Source of the DNA: Bacteroidota bacterium
GTDB taxonomy: Bacteria; Bacteroidota; Bacteroidia; 2-12-FULL-35-15
Reading direction: 5' to 3'
Assembly (NCBI GenBank): GCA_040389865.1
Contig: JAZJZM010000014.1
Location: 39,531 to 103,530 of the forward strand
DNA length: 64,000 nucleotides
The translations under genes and the position numbers were made by a program. Below the pieces are notes generated by a model. The model ran no database searches and was not told the origin of the DNA. It saw nothing but the letters and a program-made list of their open reading frames with translations. Below are positions 3,792-57,297 of the stretch, one piece after another (the stretch's first letter is position 1; each line of letters opens with the position of its first letter).

Positions 3792-4721
3792 TTAATGCGG
3801 AGTATCCAGCTCTTCTCCGTTCATTATTCCAATATAACTATTGTATCTCGACTGCGCTATTCTACCTTGTTCAACCGCTTCAATAACGGCACATTTAGGC
3901 TCATTGAGGTGTACACAATTATTAAACTTACATTGATTTTTTAAAGCGCGCATTTCCGGAAAATAATTTGAAATTTCTTCCTTCGACATATTCACCAAAC
4001 CTAATTCTTTTATACCCGGTGTATCAATTATAAATCCACCATAAGCCAATGGATGCATCTCGGCAAAAGTGGTAGTGTGTTTTCCTTTAAAATGGACATC
4101 CGAAATTTCACCAACGGTTAAATCCAGATTAAAATCCATCGCATTTACTAATGTGGATTTACCTACTCCGGAATGCCCTGATACCAATGTGATCTTATCT
4201 TTTGTTAATTCTTTCAACAAATCAACATCCGTTTTTTCTGTAGCAGAAACTTTATAACATTGGTATCCGATCTTCTGATAAACACTTATAAATTCATCCA
4301 ATTCAGTCATCATTTTCGCATCCTTTTCAAACAAATCAATTTTATTAAAAATAATGTTTGTAGGAATCTGGTAAGCTTCAGCCGTTAATAAGAATCTATC
4401 AATAAAACCGGCCGATGTGCGCGGGAATGCAAGTGTTACTATCAGAAATGCCTGATCCATATTTGCAGCAATAATATGCGATTGCTTGGATAAATTTATA
4501 GATTTACGAATGATATAATTTTTGCGGTTTTCTATCGCATGAATCACACCCCGTCCGTCATTTTCCATTTCAAACGCTACCTTATCACCAACAGCAATAG
4601 GATTAGTGGTTTTAATGCCCTGGATACGAAACTTCCCTTTGATGCCGCATTCCACTATTGTTCCGCTTTCGTTTAAAACGGTATACCAGCTACCGGTTGA
4701 TTTTATTACTACGCCTTTCAT
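3792..4721 (-). CDS. rsgA: ribosome small-subunit-dependent GTPase A
   Basis: P-loop 'GHSGVGKSTL', C-terminal zinc-finger 'CKFNNCVHLNEPKCAV', about 310 aa. Confidence 0.85.
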   Translation of the reverse strand: MKGVVIKSTGSWYTVLNESGTIVECGIKGKFRIQGIKTTNPIAVGDKVAFEMENDGRGVIHAIENRKNYIIRKSINLSKQSHIIAANMDQAFLIVTLAFPRTSAGFIDRFLLTAEAYQIPTNIIFNKIDLFEKDAKMMTELDEFISVYQKIGYQCYKVSATEKTDVDLLKELTKDKITLVSGHSGVGKSTLVNAMDFNLDLTVGEISDVHFKGKHTTTFAEMHPLAYGGFIIDTPGIKELGLVNMSKEEISNYFPEMRALKNQCKFNNCVHLNEPKCAVIEAVEQGRIAQSRYNSYIGIMNGEELDTPH

Positions 4722-4976
4722 TTCATTTCTCCCTATCCCCTTTATTATTCATACCAAAGAAATAAATTCATTCCTTCGGAAGGAAAAGGATTTTTTAACG
4801 ATTTTTAGAACATCAAATTTATTAAAAAGAATTAGCTTTGTGTGAACAATTAAAACAATTGAACAATTTTGCCTAGGCAATTTAACAATTGACAAAAAAA
4901 TGAACAGTTGGCAATTGGCAATGAGCAGTTGCCAAACATCGTTTCGTAAATTCGTAATAATTCGTTATCCGTAATC

Positions 4977-8087: not shown

Positions 8088-8094
8088 TTTTCTA

Positions 8095-8225
8095 AAGAAT
8101 TAGAGAAATAGAGAATTGGAGAGTTGGAGAATTGGAAAGGTTACAAAATCGAAAATTGAACTTTAAACAAAAGACTATATCTCTAATTCAATAAATCACT
8201 AAACTCCATTTCTCTATTTCACTAA
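8095..8225. repeat. imperfect palindromic array built from 'agagaattggagagttgg' units with an inverted partner
   Basis: Forward 'agaattagagaaatagagaattggagagttggagaattgg', then inverted 'tctctaattc...atttctctatttc...aatctctattt'. The same unit recurs at 61542-61600. Confidence 0.5.
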
Positions 8226-8242
8226 ATCTCTATTTTTTTATA

Positions 8243-9473: not shown

Positions 9474-9732
9474 GCCGTTTCGAGGGCAAACGCATTTAAA
9501 AATTTTTAATTTTTTTAGGCTTTTAGACAAAGAGCCGTAGGCTCTGTTTATTTTATAAGGATGGACTTTAGTCCATCCACTAAAGTAAGACCGACATACT
9601 TAAAGAGTCGTAGGCTCGGTTCATATAATTACAATATCATTCGCTCCGGAGTTTATCCTGACGAAGGAAGGGGAACTCTGTATTTGAAAATATTGAGCAT
9701 TGCTAAATTTAGATGCGTTTGCCCTAGTTTCG
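9474..9732. repeat. about 260-bp hairpin-rich intergenic element bounded by 11-bp inverted repeats (MITE/sRNA-like)
   Basis: 'agggcaaacgc' at 9483-9493 and 'gcgtttgccct' at 9715-9725 enclose three hairpins: 'caaagagccgtaggctctgttt', 'gatggactttagtccatc / actttagtccatccactaaagt', and 'gagtcgtaggctcgg'. Confidence 0.3.
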
Positions 9733-9763
9733 TAAATTACTGATCATTCGTAATTCGTAACTA

Positions 9764-10123: not shown

Positions 10124-10136
10124 CTGAAATTAGTCA

Positions 10137-10283
10137 ATGGTTGTTAGTTGTTAGTTGTTAGTTGTTAGCTGATGGTAGATGCCATTATCAATTGTCAATT
10201 GTTAATTGATTCCTTTTGATGGTTGTTAGTTGTTGTTACCTAAATGCCCAATTGCCTATTGCTTAATTGCCTACTGCTAAATT
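10137..10283. repeat. tandem 'gttgttagtt' x4 followed by 'caattg'/'aattgcct' word repeats
   Basis: 'gttgttagttgttagttgttagttgttagct', 'caattgtcaattgttaattg' and 'caattgcctattgcttaattgcctactg' read directly. The inverted counterpart 'caactaacaa' array is at 28022-28080. Confidence 0.7.
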
Positions 10284-10288
10284 GATCC

Positions 10289-12230: not shown

Positions 12231-12821
12231 ATGAATAGCACATTAAACGAAAAGTCAGAAAAAATAAAGAACAGTATTAAAGGTACTGCTGAGAAATCGA
12301 AAGAAACAATAAGAGAGATCATTGACTCTAACACAAAACACATTGGAGAGGCTTTGAATTCCAACAAAAAAATTGTTGATTCAATAAAAGAAAAATTTAA
12401 TCAGCAAGAAATGGACGACTCTGTTACAGATACATTGAAAAGCACTTTTGGAAAATCAGTGGAGCTTGCAGAAGACGCCCTTGACAGCATTATAAATTCA
12501 TACACACGACAAATGGAAATGAATGTAGACTTCAACACCAAGTTGGTTGATGCTCTTAAAGAATCAAACACTGCTCATCCCGAAAAAGTGTTGGAACTAA
12601 TTCACGAAAATTTTGAAGCGTCACACCAGTTGACCATCAGAAACACAAAAGAAATACTTGATTTCTACAATAAGCACACCAACCTGGCTGTAAATTTCAA
12701 TCAGAAATTTGGAGAAAGCATAAATGCTCAAATAGAATCACTTTTTAATCTTCAGAACAAAGGCTTGAATAAATTTACAAATTGGGCTTCTGAATGGTGG
12801 AAACAGGAAAGTAAAAAATAA
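12231..12821 (+). CDS. all-helical K/E-rich protein, putative phasin (PHA granule-associated) paralog A
   Basis: 196 aa of low-complexity amphipathic helix. About 90% identical to ORF 14012-14617. Lies 2.5 kb upstream of phaC. Confidence 0.6.
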   Translation: MNSTLNEKSEKIKNSIKGTAEKSKETIREIIDSNTKHIGEALNSNKKIVDSIKEKFNQQEMDDSVTDTLKSTFGKSVELAEDALDSIINSYTRQMEMNVDFNTKLVDALKESNTAHPEKVLELIHENFEASHQLTIRNTKEILDFYNKHTNLAVNFNQKFGESINAQIESLFNLQNKGLNKFTNWASEWWKQESKK

Positions 12822-14011: not shown

Positions 14012-14617
14012 ATGAACATCACATTAAATGAAAAAGCTGAAAAGATTAAAAGCAGCATTAAAGGAACTGCCGAAAAATCGAAAGAAACAATAAGAGAGAT
14101 CATTGTTTCAAACACAAAACACATTGGCGATGCGTTGGATTCTAATAAAAAAATAGTTGATTCGATCAAAGAAAAATTGAATCAGCAAGAAATCCAGGAT
14201 TCTGTTACTGACACGCTGAAAAGTACTTTTGGGAAATCAGTTGAATTAGCAGAAGATGCTCTTGATAGTATCATCAATTCATACACAAGACAAATGGAAA
14301 TGAATGTTGATTTTAACACAAAATTAGTTGACGCTCTTAAAGAATCTAATAGCGCTCAACCGGAAAAAGTGTTGGAATTAATTCACGAAAATTTTGAAGC
14401 ATCACACCAGTTAACGATTAGAAATACAAAAGAAATCCTTGATTTCTATAATAAACATACAAACCTTGCTGTGAATTTCAACGAAAAATTCGGAGCAAGT
14501 ATCAATGCTCAAATTGAATCACTATTTAATTTACAAAGCAAAGGTTTGAATAAATTTACAAACTGGGCTTCTGAATGGTGGAAACAAGAAAGTAAAGATA
14601 AAAAAGAGACCGTTTAA
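14012..14617 (+). CDS. putative phasin paralog A' (near-duplicate of 12231-12821)
   Basis: 201 aa, 'MNITLNEKAEKIKSSIKGTAEKSKETIREII...' aligns almost residue-for-residue with paralog A. Confidence 0.6.
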   Translation: MNITLNEKAEKIKSSIKGTAEKSKETIREIIVSNTKHIGDALDSNKKIVDSIKEKLNQQEIQDSVTDTLKSTFGKSVELAEDALDSIINSYTRQMEMNVDFNTKLVDALKESNSAQPEKVLELIHENFEASHQLTIRNTKEILDFYNKHTNLAVNFNEKFGASINAQIESLFNLQSKGLNKFTNWASEWWKQESKDKKETV

Positions 14618-21914: not shown

Positions 21915-21920
21915 TTTGTA

Positions 21921-22036
21921 TTTAGATCTTGGATTTTAGATGTTGGACGTTAGATGTTGGACGTTAGATGCTGGATTTTAGATGGGTTTAAATGTGTGGC
22001 TCTAATATCTAAAATCCTATATCTAACATCTAACTA
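21921..22036. repeat. palindromic 'tagatgttgg' satellite between the decarboxylase and ATP-grasp genes
   Basis: Forward 'ttttagatgttggacgttagatgttggacgttagatgctggattttagatgg' and inverted 'ctaaaatcctatatctaacatctaac'. Confidence 0.7.
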
Positions 22037-24778: not shown

Positions 24779-24792
24779 CTTTTTTGTATTGT

Positions 24793-24984
24793 GATGTTGG
24801 GGTATTAGATGTTGGATATTAGATGTTGGATATTAGATGTTGGATATTAGATGTTGGATGTTAGATGTTAGATGTTAGATGTTAGATGTTAGATATTGGA
24901 TGTTGGATGTTGGATGTTGGATATTTAATTCGGGTAAAGACACTTTTACAACCATAGCCTCCAACATCTAACATCCAACATCTA
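24793..24984. repeat. palindromic 'tagatgttgga' satellite array immediately upstream of the decarboxylase start
   Basis: About 13 tandem units 'attagatgttggat / gttagatgtta' over 24793-24925, then the inverted copy 'ccaacatctaacatccaacatcta' at 24961-24984. Confidence 0.75.
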
Positions 24985-24988
24985 TTCT

Positions 24989-27984: not shown

Positions 27985-28080
27985 TGGATAATGGATATTG
28001 GATAATTGATAATGGACAATCACCTAACAACTAACAACCATCAACTAGCAACTAACAACCATCAACTAACAACCAAACTA
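27982..28080. repeat. 'ataatggata' and 'caactaacaa' tandem word repeats
   Basis: 'ataatggataatggatattggataattgataatggac' followed by 'cacctaacaactaacaaccatcaactagcaactaacaaccatcaactaacaacc', the reverse complement of the 10137 array. Confidence 0.7.
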
Positions 28081-28082
28081 AA

Positions 28083-30762: not shown

Positions 30763-30858
30763 CGTTTTCTTCATGAATGTTCGTGGTTGGTTCTCTCATC
30801 TCAATACTATCAAGGATTCTTCGTAAATTTGTATATTATCACTTAAATTATTGATTAA

Positions 30859-34486: not shown

Positions 34487-34945
34487 ATGTACAAAACCAT
34501 AAGTTCCATACTCCTTTTAGTACTGATGTTTGCTGCTTTTTCAACAGTTTCAGCTAACCCATCTTGCCTATCTTATGAAGAAGATAGTGTGGTAATATGC
34601 GTATTGGAAATTCAACCTGGTGATTCTATCCTAAATTCAATCGCAACAGATACTTTAGCACTTCAATTAAACCAAAAAGAAGTTGCGCTTGCATCCGTTT
34701 TGCCTTCAGATGATCTGAAACAGAAGAAACGGGTATGTGCATTTTTTGCCTTTCCTTTCCCTTTTGGTTTTGTAGGGGCTCACCGCGTTATGTTGGGCAC
34801 TAAACCCTGGATCCCGATCGTATACGTTGCTACGTTTGGTGGCTGCTTTGGGCTGCTTCCTTTAATTGATTTTTTAGTGATTTTAAATGCGAAGGATATG
34901 GAACAATATGAAAACAATCCCAATCTTTTTATGTGGATCAAATAG
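34487..34945 (+). CDS. TM2-domain membrane protein with signal peptide
   Basis: 'FPFGFVGAHRVMLG' TM2-domain signature and two TM helices. 152 aa. Confidence 0.55.
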   Translation: MYKTISSILLLVLMFAAFSTVSANPSCLSYEEDSVVICVLEIQPGDSILNSIATDTLALQLNQKEVALASVLPSDDLKQKKRVCAFFAFPFPFGFVGAHRVMLGTKPWIPIVYVATFGGCFGLLPLIDFLVILNAKDMEQYENNPNLFMWIK

Positions 34946-35150
34946 TTACAGATAAACATTGGTTACGGATAAACGAATCTATACAAATTTACGAAACGGT
35001 GTGTAAAAAAACAGCAAAGATAGTTTCGTAAATTTGTTATTAGTAACCATAAGGAGCAATCTGTATATTGGGAATGATTTCATTATCTATAACAAACATA
35101 GATTCGTAAATTCGTAAAAATTCGATATTCGTAACCAGTAATTCGTAGTA
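34946..35150. repeat. 'ttcgtaa/ttacgaa' palindromic word element (about 95-bp core shared with 44405-44490)
   Basis: 'ggttacggataaacgaat...atttacgaaac...tttcgtaaattt...gtaacc' then 'gattcgtaaattcgtaaaaattcgatattcgtaaccagtaattcgtag'. Confidence 0.65.
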
Positions 35151-35152
35151 GT

Positions 35153-35835: not shown

Positions 35836-35918
35836 AATCGAGAACGTCATTGCGAGGAACGAAGCAATCTCATATTATGCTTTGGTTGAGATTGCTTCGT
35901 TCCTCGCAATGACGGCAA
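35836..35918. repeat. perfect 27-bp-stem inverted repeat
   Basis: 'cgtcattgcgaggaacgaagcaatctc' + 16-nt loop + 'gagattgcttcgttcctcgcaatgacg', read directly. No U-tract follows. Confidence 0.75.
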
Positions 35919-52528: not shown

Positions 52529-52646
52529 GTCAGGATTTAAGAATCAAGACGCAAGATGTTGTTCGTGTACTAAATTCATTTGTCTTAACTCTTGATTCTT
52601 AGATCTTGGTTCTTAGATCTTGGTTCTTAAATCTTAACTCTAACAT
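52529..52646. repeat. palindromic satellite built on 'tcttggttcttaga' units
   Basis: 'ttaagaatcaagac...gtcttaactcttgattcttagatcttggttcttagatcttggttcttaaatcttaactc'. Confidence 0.6.
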
Positions 52647-54935: not shown

Positions 54936-54992
54936 AATTGCGAATATAGGAAACTTCCTACGAATTACGAATAAAAAACGAATTACGAATAT
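54936..54992. repeat. 'ttcgtaa/ttacgaa' word element
   Basis: 'gaattgcgaatataggaaacttcctacgaattacgaataaaaaacgaattacgaatatg'. Confidence 0.6.
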
Positions 54993-55158: not shown

Positions 55159-56121
55159 TTAATACGGTAAAACAACCTGTTGAGGCACATTATTAATATC
55201 AACCCAGTTGAACTTATAACCAAAAGGACATCCTGAGGTCATAACATTACCAAAAAGATCCACACCATAGGTTGTAGTAAGCGTGAATGCTGTTGTGTAA
55301 CTCACAACAACGCCTGGCATTGGTCTGTACAAACAAACAGAACCTGCCATGTAATAGGAAATAGAAGTAGGTATGTCAACAGTAAAAGGTTGACCTAATC
55401 TGTTAGTCCCCCAAACAGCTGCATGGCTATAAGAACCAAAAGTAGTATCTCCGGCAATGGTATTTGTGATCAAACCAAGTGCATGGGTAAATGTTCTTGT
55501 TTTTGCAACCATCCATGTGCGGGTGGTTCCATCGTCAAAAGTTATTACCATATTTGCTCTTACCTGATGAACAATTGTATTACCCATTAAAAGTTGTACA
55601 ATTCCACCTCCATTAACATTTTTAATACTGTGGAAACCATTAAAGGTGAGAGATTTATTATCAGAAAGGCGGGTAACCTTATAATTGTTGAAGGTAATGA
55701 TCGCTCTGGCACCAACTGTTGTCCAGGTAGTTACTATTCCATTATAGGGAAGTTGAATAACGATAGAACCTGTACGTGATGTCAGGTTCAGGCAATCGTT
55801 ACCGGTATACGTTAAGGTGATCTTACCTACAGATGCCATAGAAGTATCAACGGTCATATTACAAACAGCTTGCACATCTCTGGTTTGAGAACAATCCTGC
55901 ATAGCGTTGATCGCATCATCCATTGCACGGTTACTTTCACTATCGAAACTGTTCTGATCCTTAGCTTTTTGAGTCTGTTGAGAAGTGCTACCATCCGGAG
56001 TTGGCTGAGTAACAGGTGTTGGCGTTGGGATTTGAGCCTCCTCCTTTTTACATCCTGCTATTGTTAATCCAATAAATGCAATAGCTAAAACAAGTTTAAA
56101 GATCGATTTTTTTGTGTTCAT
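55159..56121 (-). CDS. lipoprotein of unknown function (tandem paralog 1)
   Basis: Lipobox 'LTIAGCKKEE'. 320 aa, beta-rich. Shares 'TFNGFHS', 'ITFDDGTTRTW' and a C-terminal '...LPY' with 56347-57297. Confidence 0.6.
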   Translation of the reverse strand: MNTKKSIFKLVLAIAFIGLTIAGCKKEEAQIPTPTPVTQPTPDGSTSQQTQKAKDQNSFDSESNRAMDDAINAMQDCSQTRDVQAVCNMTVDTSMASVGKITLTYTGNDCLNLTSRTGSIVIQLPYNGIVTTWTTVGARAIITFNNYKVTRLSDNKSLTFNGFHSIKNVNGGGIVQLLMGNTIVHQVRANMVITFDDGTTRTWMVAKTRTFTHALGLITNTIAGDTTFGSYSHAAVWGTNRLGQPFTVDIPTSISYYMAGSVCLYRPMPGVVVSYTTAFTLTTTYGVDLFGNVMTSGCPFGYKFNWVDINNVPQQVVLPY

Positions 56122-56346: not shown

Positions 56347-57297
56347 TTAATATGGTAGAATAAGTTGTTGGTTTGCGCCATTACCATCTGTCCAGGAGAA
56401 TTTGTATCCAAAAGGACAAGAGGTTGCAGTATAACCGCTTGCATCAACACCATACGTAAGAGTAAGTTGGTGAGCAACACCGTAATGTACAATAACTCCG
56501 GTTAAGGGCTTATAAATACAATTTGTTATTGGATTATTTATGTCATAGGAAAAAGATGTTGGCATATCAATAATAAAACTTTCTCCTATTCTGTTTACTC
56601 CCCAAAATGCAACATTATTATGCCCACTTATAGCTGTATCTCCAATTGTGGAAGCTTTAAGCACTTCAGTTACATTATTGTAGTTTAGTGTTCTTTTCAC
56701 TTTGGCATTCCACAAACGAGTAGTACCATCGTCAAATGTTAACTGTATATTTGCCCGTACTTCATGAACAATTGGAGTCCCGAAATATAGTTGGATCCAT
56801 CCCCCTCCATTCACATTTGTAACGCTATGAGTGCCATTAAAAGTAAGAGATTTATTATTCGATACGTACGTAACTTTGTAGTTATTAAACGTAAGTTTTG
56901 CAATAGCACCGGCAGTTGACCAGGTGGTTATAATACCATTGGAATATGGAAGCTGCACAGTGATAGAGCCGGTACGAATTTTACCGGAACAAGCTGTACC
57001 ATCATAATTCAATGTGATTTTACCAATACTTTTGTAAGTTGAATCGATGGTCATACCACAAGATTGTACACTTCTTGTTGTTGACACAGCTCCTAAGGCT
57101 GAATTGGCTTCATCCATCGCCTGATTAGATTCATTCTCTGTATTTGACTGGTCGGATGCTCTTGTAGTTTGGCTTGCATTTTCAGCAGGAGTTACTATTG
57201 GAGCTACTGGCTCTTCCTCCTTTTTACAGCCTACTATTAAGAAGGCAGCAAAAGCAACCGCAACAATACTCTTAAAAATTGTTTTGTTTGTTTTCAT
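56347..57297 (-). CDS. lipoprotein of unknown function (tandem paralog 2)
   Basis: Lipobox 'LIVGCKKEE'. 316 aa, about 45% identical to paralog 1. Confidence 0.6.
   Translation of the reverse strand: MKTNKTIFKSIVAVAFAAFLIVGCKKEEEPVAPIVTPAENASQTTRASDQSNTENESNQAMDEANSALGAVSTTRSVQSCGMTIDSTYKSIGKITLNYDGTACSGKIRTGSITVQLPYSNGIITTWSTAGAIAKLTFNNYKVTYVSNNKSLTFNGTHSVTNVNGGGWIQLYFGTPIVHEVRANIQLTFDDGTTRLWNAKVKRTLNYNNVTEVLKASTIGDTAISGHNNVAFWGVNRIGESFIIDMPTSFSYDINNPITNCIYKPLTGVIVHYGVAHQLTLTYGVDASGYTATSCPFGYKFSWTDGNGANQQLILPY

Follow-up and report, generated by a model that had tools for sequence, protein, structure and literature searches.

The 64-kb stretch of DNA analysed here (hereafter the window), a fragment with 35.5% GC of a Bacteroidota metagenome-assembled genome (MAG) that carries sprA, gcvH, nadD and maeB, contains a real, dispersed family of intergenic repeats, whose unit is a 34-nt arm made of four TTCGTA words at the fixed spacing 8-10-7 (TTCGTAAATTCGTAANNATTCGTTATCCGTAACC). 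The arm occurs in two forms: as an inverted doublet that folds into a hairpin past stop codons, and as a single arm, directed at the next gene in sense orientation and ending at its ATG. With a probability of roughly one half, we interpret the arm as a gene-boundary module that was copied and then selected, and which would act as a terminator or processing hairpin in the first form and as an unstructured leader in the second. Two observations argue for a selected function at gene boundaries, namely the orientation of the arms relative to start codons and their conservation, which exceeds that of coding DNA. What is surprising in this family is the four-word architecture, the fixed placement relative to the start codon and the spread over Bacteroidia and Patescibacteria. 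A full-text literature search for the arm sequence gave three irrelevant matches only, and nothing describing the family was found in the literature on repetitive extragenic palindromic (REP) sequences and MITEs (miniature inverted-repeat transposable elements) in Bacteroidetes or on repeats of the candidate phyla radiation.

Results

Existence and anatomy of the family

The word TTCGTAA occurs 34 times in the window, against 10.9 +/- 3.3 expected (the largest count in any shuffle being 19), and ATTCGTAA occurs 14 times, against 3.2 +/- 1.8. The density of TTCGTAA is about 10x higher in intergenic DNA (2.28 per kb) than in coding DNA (0.24 per kb). A mismatch scan with the arm consensus located nine arms in the window, where 20 shuffles gave not a single one; overall, eight or nine ordered arms can be counted in the 64 kb, at a density of 0.13 arms per kb, with about 0.05 per kb at other loci as background. 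The initial annotation, made from the sequence alone, had proposed a dispersed family of such words and suggested comparing their counts with the composition-based expectation; the excess is present in the window, and more than 109 further genome loci carry the exact pattern.

Both long copies described in that annotation are real and contain the ordered blocks GGTTACGRATAAACGAAT, ATTTACGAAA, TTTCGTAAATT and GTAACC, with true limits at 34961-35048 (copy B) and 44410-44494 (copy D), the earlier coordinates being about 5 nt too low. The shorter runs of the same words are likewise real (Table 1), and align in register with both long copies as one family of 33-45 nt; as had been claimed, the ordered copies are always intergenic, all of them lying outside open reading frames (ORFs) of at least 100 aa. 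A stub, CAAACAYAG, frequently precedes the arm, and in a frequent variant a T-run takes the place of TAANNA, giving CGTTTTTTTATTCG. The full form is indeed an inverted doublet, in which two arms stand back to back over 85-100 bp, with word 1 facing a loop of 12-27 nt (consensus CTGTGTTTGCTGTTTTTTTACACNCAG), terminal inverted repeats (GGTTACGRATAACGAAT... and ...ATTCGTTATCCGTAACC) and GGTTAC/GTAACC as outer ends. The most conserved part of the doublet is its loop-proximal half, with the inner words, and not the outer termini.

The arm is not itself palindromic, shuffled sequences folding at least as well as the RNA of single arms (z +0.4 and +1.2), and no GTAG/CGTC head was found on it, single arms beginning with TTCG. 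Rfam covariance models gave no match at gathering score in the whole window, and the matches at the locus with E up to 10 were chance-level miRNA only. Two ideas about the arm were abandoned: G-depletion as its defining property, the arm not being G-poor, and pairing with 16S rRNA, given that the arm is presumably similar to the h44/h45 region itself and not to its complement.

Hairpin copies past stop codons

Hairpin copies are located 0-20 nt past stop codons or between convergent genes, as is the case for one copy at a fetched locus (L030; L-numbers denote such loci throughout). The predicted RNA fold has -27.2 kcal/mol (z -5.1) for copy B and -34.0 kcal/mol (z -7.6) for copy D, with 0/200 shuffles as stable in either case, and the most stable hairpin copies at other loci reach -68 kcal/mol. 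Compensatory support comes from five stem pairs that still pair despite changes on both sides.

Copy D has the stem-loop and U-tract of an intrinsic terminator just past the stop codon on the coding strand, its consensus match consisting of a 16-bp stem (44473->44434), an 8-nt loop and then TTTTTTTATTC (a T7 run), and the canonical -7 box of gcvH lies just outside it, which places copy D between terminator and next promoter. Copy B contains no T-run and does not qualify as an intrinsic terminator. Among the T-run hairpins, a same-strand ORF ends just upstream in 5/7.

Copy B follows a TM2-domain gene, and the extra unit of Table 1 begins directly after the TAG stop of this gene (34943-34945). 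In the relative L113 the palindrome starts at the base directly after the same stop, and the spacer, although orthologous in other respects, has no extra unit, a sign that the copy number changed by one unit. The loop sequence of copy B is also found in L029, L030, L097 and L113, and the perfect Bacteroidetes -7 consensus TAAATTTG within its right arm spans 35029-35036.

Single arms before start codons

An ATG opening an ORF of at least 70 aa lies 31-39 nt from the arm start in 38/119 copies, with no comparable ATG peak on the opposite side of the arms; in Patescibacteria this distance is 36-37 nt in all such copies. The genes served (pfkA twice, gap, gpmI, aceF, maeB, glpK, gpsA, adk, pyrH, pyrB, atpC, dnaE, lepA, rpoN, nadD, rpsU, rpsS and ABC ATPases) have unrelated housekeeping functions. 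Flavobacterial mRNAs are described as devoid of Shine-Dalgarno sequences, with initiation tuned by mRNA structure (PMC6847099), and in F. psychrophilum the median 5' UTR has 24 nt and the -7 box occupies -12..-5 (PMC9723704).

Within the window, arm C is composed of CAAACATAGA, TTCGTAAATTCGTAAAAATTCGATATTCGTAACC and one more word, AGTAATTCGTAGTAGT, and its RNA is unstructured (z +1.15). Next to the maeB arm comes TATATTCG, located at -30 relative to the maeB ATG (54918), and the arm of the S41 peptidase gene carries a perfect TAAATTTG. The arm-like word at 30820..30831 is probably an ordinary promoter that happens to have the word; it is conserved in L001, L113 and L115, and the remainder of its spacer turns over.

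Table 1. Arms, hairpin copies and associated boxes in the window
Feature	Position	Strand	Remarks
Arm A, CAAACATCG + TTTCGTAAATTCGTAATAATTCGTTATCCGTAATC	4933..4976 (arm 4943-4975)	+	adjoins ATG 4977 of an ABC-transporter ATPase gene
Orphan arm, TTCGTAAATTACTGATCATTCGTAATTCGTAAC, word 2 degraded	9719..9763 (arm 9729-9761)	+	between convergent gene ends
Arm-like first word fused to canonical -7 box, TTCGTAAATTTG	30820..30831	+	35 nt before dCMP deaminase ATG
Extra partial outer unit, TTACAGATAAACATT	34946..34960	-	repeats TTACGGATAAAC end of copy B left arm
Copy B, left (reverse-complement) arm, GGTTACGGATAAACGAATCTATACAAATTTACGAAA	34961..34996	-	2 mismatches to arm consensus
Copy B, loop, CGGTGTGTAAAAAAACAGCAAAGATAG	34997..35023	.	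conserved family loop CTGTGTTTGCTGTTTTTTTACACNCNG in reverse orientation
Copy B, right arm, shortened, TTTCGTAAATTTGTTATTAGTAACC	35024..35048	+	conserved in L113, including TAAATTTG
Arm C with loop-side stub	35093..35152 (arm 35103-35135)	+	reaches nadD ATG 35153
gcvH canonical -7 box, TAAATTTG	44383..44390	-	38 nt before ATG at 44352
Copy D, left arm, TTTCGTAAATTCGTTTTTTTATTCGTTTATTCGTAACC	44410..44447	-	T-run variant when read on - strand
Copy D, intrinsic-terminator-like core	44423..44473	- (sprA strand)	consensus scan and fold
Copy D, loop, CACCCTAAACTA	44448..44459	.	short loop
Copy D, right arm, TTTCGTAAATTCGTAATGATTCGCTATTTGTAACC	44460..44494	+	2 nt from sprA stop codon 44497-44499 (- strand)
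Single arm, T-run variant, ATTCGTAATTCGTTTTTTATTCGTAATTCGTAGG	54936..54992 (arm 54957-54989)	-	upstream of maeB
Degenerate arm, ATTCGTAAATTTGTATTGATCCGTAATTTGAAACAC	61630..61666 (arm 61632-61664)	+	ends at ATG 61667 of an S41 peptidase gene

Upstream of the ABC ATPase gene served by arm A, an 85-nt block (4795-4880) that contains TAGCTTTG at -144 and L022 have almost 100% identity, which exceeds that of the flanking coding DNA; the block is probably the real promoter of this gene, or else a leader element that has gone unrecognised. The putative 5' UTR of about 130 nt is composed of CAATTG/GGCAAT word arrays.

Conservation and turnover between relatives

Close relatives of the window were obtained through NadD homologs. 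In L113 (NadD 96% identical) the TM2-nadD spacer has the same palindrome plus arm as the window, whereas in L115 and L001 (NadD 95% and 94%) and in L117 (84%) the spacer is wholly different, consisting of GATTTGAGA and CTCA/ATCTAAT words; there the place of arm C is taken by an (ATCTAAT)x3-4 or CTCA-word leader. The genes flanking this swapped spacer stay about 88-90% identical. The sprA-gcvH spacer is likewise replaced in relatives, by CACAGATTAC/GTAATCTGTG arrays, and an arm upstream of the TPR gene (TPR2 spacer) was gained in L115 alone.

The same behavior is observed in presence/absence pairs at other loci (L051/L101, L077/L029 and L087/L067), in which the partner has another word array up to the ATG. 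In general, the arm-less orthologs carry a different four-word array in the same place, e.g. (AATCTCA)x4, (ATCTAAT)x3-4 or CAATGAACTAAT. Clean insertion was found in none of five independent presence/absence comparisons (two neighbourhood spacers and three locus pairs), the whole stop-to-ATG spacer being replaced, and no target-site duplication was found at the GGTTAC...GTAACC ends, the flanks of 12 full copies having no direct repeat (e.g. aacaTT|..|ATaagg, acaAT|..|TTttaa and tttacG|..|ACcc). In addition, clustering of ORFs of at least 90 aa from 109 loci of up to 8 kb revealed no linked transposase or other recurrent gene, only generic paralog families, and none of the 20 window ORFs scanned with Pfam is a transposase.

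Where the arm is retained, it is better conserved than its surroundings: for dnaE (L008 vs L052) identity is 94% in the arm, 77% in coding DNA and 32% in the spacer, and for the ABC ATPase gene (window vs L022) it is 94% in the arm, 89% in coding DNA and 78% in the rest of the spacer. An rpsU-linked palindrome is kept between two Patescibacteria lineages. As a separate observation, two loci with identical NadD (L001:9889-10000 and L002:4224-4328) have nadD leaders that differ by exactly one ATCTAAT unit (x4 vs x3), which shows that word arrays are length-polymorphic between near-identical strains.

Distribution across genomes

The pattern TTCGTAAATTCGTAANNATTCG, with 20 specified bases, was searched exactly in a collection of species-representative genomes, and more than 109 stretches matched. 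The matches listed are mostly from Bacteroidia, with about 20 from Patescibacteria (Saccharibacteria, Sungiibacteriota, Azam-, Falkow-, Moran- and Parcubacteria), one labelled Pacearchaeota and one labelled Gammaproteobacteria. All of those listed are MAGs, mostly from lakes, groundwater, peat and wastewater, and no cultured isolate is among them, despite the many cultured Bacteroidota in the collection. Several of the Patescibacteria contigs with the arm are 125-198 kb long. The Patescibacteria copies form a subtype of their own, loop-less and with the centre TACGAATTCGTA, but with the 8-10-7 arm unchanged, and a distinct subtype with the same arm argues against contamination. One AT-rich copy is located in a genome with 58% GC. 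The exact pattern had no match in 2.9 M viral contigs, and blastn against plasmids and phages gave no match.

A loop-less TTCGTA palindrome was also found within the 5' domain of the 23S rRNA gene in two MAGs, one of them labelled Saccharibacteria (L028:343-460 and L059:6187-6304); in L028, 660 nt span positions 1-508 of the 23S model, and the palindrome looks like an intervening sequence. As to local density, some Patescibacteria contigs have the arm itself in tandem (a block of 35 nt in two to three copies, at L033:3931-4052 and 4446-4583), and L031 is very dense, with four arm clusters in 5.8 kb.

Other word arrays and repeats

The window and the fetched loci, those of Patescibacteria included, contain many arrays of 7-9 nt words with about four copies, often as inverted stop-to-start pairs, and orthologous spacers are built from different words. 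Within this broader pattern, the TTCGTA arm seems to be the only member that is both dispersed and conserved in sequence. In the window, words of 7-8 nt form further tandem arrays between genes, located at 8088-8242, 10124-10288, 21915-22036, 24779-24988, 27985-28082, 52583-52641 and 61542-61598, with the words AGAATTGG/CTCTATTT, GTTGTTA, TTAGATG (x17), TCTAACA, AATGGAT, CTAACAA, TCTTGGT and AGTTGGAG. Often a G-rich array stands past the stop codon and the complementary array extends as far as the next ATG, and several word-array spacers fold strongly (z -4.6 to -7.6). Inverted arrays of about four copies are found in Patescibacteria at L019:6180-6345, L020:4329-4470, L007:1976-2050 and L005:2370-2482, and upstream of ftsA two species have stop-to-start inverted arrays made from different words (AAACTCT/AGAGTTT vs AATTATTCT/ATTAGAATA). 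In different species, a second word family (AGGCAAT / TTGGCAAT / CAATTTAACAA) often directly precedes single TTCGTA arms, with AGGCAAT-type arrays at L008, L016, L022, L024, L052, L057, L069, L071 and L080 and at 4843-4925 of the window.

Elsewhere in the window, three copies of a CCCTGACAGGGTTTCAAACCCTGTYAGG hairpin flank an ORF of 225 aa (40100-40777) with no Pfam match, in a region with the coordinates 39915-40076, 40066-40096, 40799-40830 and 40861-40892, beside which 82 nt, the start of the adjacent gene included, are duplicated in tandem. There are also neighbouring paralogous gene pairs, 12231-12530 vs 14012-14311 (83% DNA identity) and 55520-55743 vs 56717-56940 (71%), whose 196-aa and 320-aa proteins have no significant Pfam match.

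Discussion

A proposed role as a selected module at gene boundaries

In the mechanism that we propose, the hairpin form would end or process the upstream transcript directly past its stop codon. Copies with the CGTTTTTTTATTCG variant in the descending arm would be textbook intrinsic terminators, and those without a T-run would form a long duplex of the type cut by RNase III, a cleavage suggested by the 30-36 bp duplex and by the 23S rRNA case. In the leader form, one sense arm would occupy the final ~34 nt ahead of the start codon, in organisms whose translation presumably starts without dependence on Shine-Dalgarno pairing; because direct repeats of a word that is not self-complementary cannot fold, the arm may well provide an unstructured initiation region. 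The first words of the arm resemble the -7 box of sigma-A promoters, and some copies may supply or overlap a promoter. New copies would be copied from other loci, gain or lose units through word slippage, displace functionally equivalent word arrays and then be retained by purifying selection. As other four-word arrays are interchangeable with the arm, much of its function would be generic, and the strong conservation of words 1-2, together with the identity across phyla, indicates that something also reads the sequence.

The family itself is shown by the data, as are its anatomy, positions, conservation and turnover. Several points weigh against the proposed interpretation. The terminator, processing and leader functions, like the copying mechanism, are all deduced from the sequence itself. 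Words 1-2 are more conserved than mere lack of structure demands, and a sequence-specific reader (RNA polymerase, the ribosome or some binding protein) might take part. The G fraction in the last 40 nt before nadD is 0.17, as compared with 0.03-0.10 for most leaders, and copy B, besides having no T-run, is about 100 nt away from the nadD ATG. The arm at 9729-9761 has no gene to serve, the five presence/absence comparisons yielded no clean insertion and the orientation test on T-run hairpins (five of seven) is small.

Alternative explanations

Chance, or independent local microsatellites, would make each site its own slippage expansion of a common AT-rich word, with unrelated origins, and the genome is indeed rich in unrelated 7-8 nt arrays whose unit copy number differs between close strains. 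The copies share, however, an irregular ordered structure (the 8-10-7 spacing, the variable NN, the CAAACAYAG stub, the GTAACC end and the conserved loop) that simple slippage could not regenerate, and this origin is effectively refuted by the register alignment, by the recurrence of the 20-specified-base pattern more than 109 times and by the absence of arms from shuffles. A more serious alternative, which we nevertheless consider unlikely, is selfish DNA of the REPIN (REP doublet) or MITE type, in which an inverted doublet of about 95 bp is mobilised in trans by a transposase whose gene lies elsewhere, single arms being decayed halves and their placement near genes only tolerated insertion. 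Such an element would be multi-copy and dispersed, with coexisting doublets and singlets as in REPINs and REP singlets, and would also account for the copy inside the Saccharibacteria 23S rRNA gene, for the AT-rich copy in the GC-rich host, for gain and loss between close relatives and for a spread across phyla that suggests horizontal movement. The pure form of this explanation fails, nevertheless, on target duplication, clean insertion, terminal conservation, start-codon placement and sequence conservation: the flanks and comparisons described above contain neither duplications nor clean insertions, conservation is lower at the outer termini than in the inner words, the arm keeps within a narrow distance range of the ATG and arms at orthologous sites are conserved above coding DNA, which is unexpected for neutral junk. 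To this we can add that no recurrent transposase is found near the copies in the 109 loci of up to 8 kb and that the searches of viral contigs, phages and plasmids gave no copies. The REP/MITE-type label of the initial annotation therefore holds as far as a dispersed, multi-copy, intergenic inverted doublet is concerned, and is not supported as regards target-site duplication, clean insertion, a transposase linked to the copies within the 109 loci and a palindromic arm.

Two further alternatives invoke sequence recognition. The arm could be a portable promoter, in which words 1-2 (TTCG-TAAATTCG) are a sigma-A -7 box or, in Patescibacteria, a -10-like TAAATT, transcripts begin close to arm position 17, the remaining arm is a leader of 15-23 nt and the doublet is a terminator between two outward-firing promoters. 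TAAATTCG does agree with 5/6 specified bases of TAnnTTTG, several members have the perfect TAAATTTG (35029, 61636 and the conserved 30824), in these genomes the canonical boxes have their peak at -28..-39 from the ATG, where the box of the arm lies at -27..-35, and the geometry fits the box position and the 5' UTR length reported for F. psychrophilum (PMC9723704). For maeB and the ABC ATPase gene, moreover, TAnnTTCG stands at -30 with no canonical box nearer than -144. We find this proposal improbable, though, given that the critical position in the non-seeded members is C in 20, T in 9, A in 4 and G in 1, with no preference for the consensus T, that inspection revealed no -33/-35 element at a fixed distance upstream of single arms, that a conserved canonical box stands at -144 of the ABC ATPase gene, which would place the arm within the 5' UTR of this gene, and that orthologs swap the arm for word arrays without any box. 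A scan with the sigma-70 consensus found nothing in the arms, and the frequency of canonical -7 boxes upstream of arm-bearing genes (16%, with a background of 18%) is a comparison without statistical power. Very improbable, finally, is an operator array, whose four words would be bound by one conserved, sequence-specific protein, either tetrameric or with four domains, that recognises DNA or RNA and controls a broad housekeeping or central-carbon regulon at the region of transcription or translation start. Word identity and spacing are kept across phyla, the arm is conserved above coding DNA, its -34..-1 position is typical of operators and genes of glycolysis and central carbon metabolism are frequent (pfkA x2, gap, gpmI, aceF, maeB, glpK and gpsA). 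An operator array fails, all the same, on the mixture of genes, which also comprises dnaE, lepA, rpoN, ribosomal proteins, ABC ATPases and nadD, and on copies past stops, between convergent genes and in 23S rRNA, where there is nothing to regulate; besides, sister-species orthologs use unrelated word arrays and no candidate regulator is linked to the copies.

Comparison with known systems

Like the REPs and REPINs of Pseudomonas and E. coli, which are mobilised by REP-associated tyrosine transposases (RAYTs), the TTCGTA family is short, high-copy and extragenic, with inverted doublets of about 100 bp as well as singlets, and its hairpins often lie past genes, where REPs act as terminators or mRNA stabilisers. 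The REP unit is, in contrast, an imperfect palindrome of 20-40 nt with a GTAG/CGTC head, and not four direct word repeats; REP families are specific to a species or genus, whereas this family spans phyla, and unlike REPs its singlets are placed and oriented at start codons. Within the 109 loci of up to 8 kb, no association with a RAYT was found. The family had also been described as distinct from the RAYT-associated REP, and rightly so, the CGTC-headed hairpin at 35845-35914 being a different sequence. That hairpin, a perfect 28-nt inverted repeat (CGTCATTGCGAGGAACGAAGCAATCTCA / TGAGATTGCTTCGTTCCTCGCAATGACG), is a REP-type element of a separate family.

Correia elements (CREE/NEMIS) of Neisseria are hairpin intergenic repeats of about 100-150 bp near gene starts and ends, which can supply promoters and terminators and are cut by RNase III when transcribed. 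By analogy, they may be the best guide to how the TTCGTA family works, although their 26-bp terminal inverted repeats, TA target duplication, IHF site and restriction to Neisseria have no counterpart here. With classical MITEs the family shares non-coding, multi-copy sequences with inverted ends, present or absent between relatives, but it has no target-site duplication and termini less conserved than the interior, no parent insertion sequence came to light in the stretches of 20 kb or less around the matches, and whole spacers are replaced. In its action the family would be closest to REPINs and Correia elements, both of them hairpin repeats that also serve as terminators, processing sites or promoters; it shares only their generic features and not those that define them. 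Copy D and other T-run copies are similar to Rho-independent terminators in having a stem, a loop and a U-tract just past a stop; ordinary terminators are, however, locus-specific, whereas these hairpins form a dispersed family with an AT-rich stem of up to 36 bp, many without a T-run. The single arms, finally, are comparable to the "Kozak-like" leaders of Bacteroidetes lacking Shine-Dalgarno sequences (PMC6847099) in position (-34..-1), lack of a Shine-Dalgarno sequence and low folding potential; those leaders are described as a compositional tendency, and the TTCGTA arm is a specific 34-nt sequence reused at many genes and in other phyla.

Implications

On a more tentative level, the arm could belong to an unrecognised intergenic grammar of about four-copy arrays of 7-9 nt words, inverted from stop to start, of which TTCGTA would be the most widespread member, passed horizontally between phyla and recognised by some conserved part of the expression machinery. 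Uncultured Bacteroidia and Patescibacteria would share this grammar, possibly together with DPANN archaea.

The near-unchanged 34-nt sequence across Bacteroidia and Patescibacteria would point to either an unusually broad horizontal spread of non-coding DNA or a very conserved recognition factor. If the arm is indeed a gene-boundary module, gene boundaries in Patescibacteria and in the Bacteroidia that lack Shine-Dalgarno sequences would be marked by reusable, copyable modules and not by locus-specific signals. The arm would then help to annotate where transcripts end and which start codons are true in thousands of uncultured genomes, it would provide a compact terminator and leader part for Bacteroidetes engineering, and it could mark a physical association between Bacteroidia and Patescibacteria.

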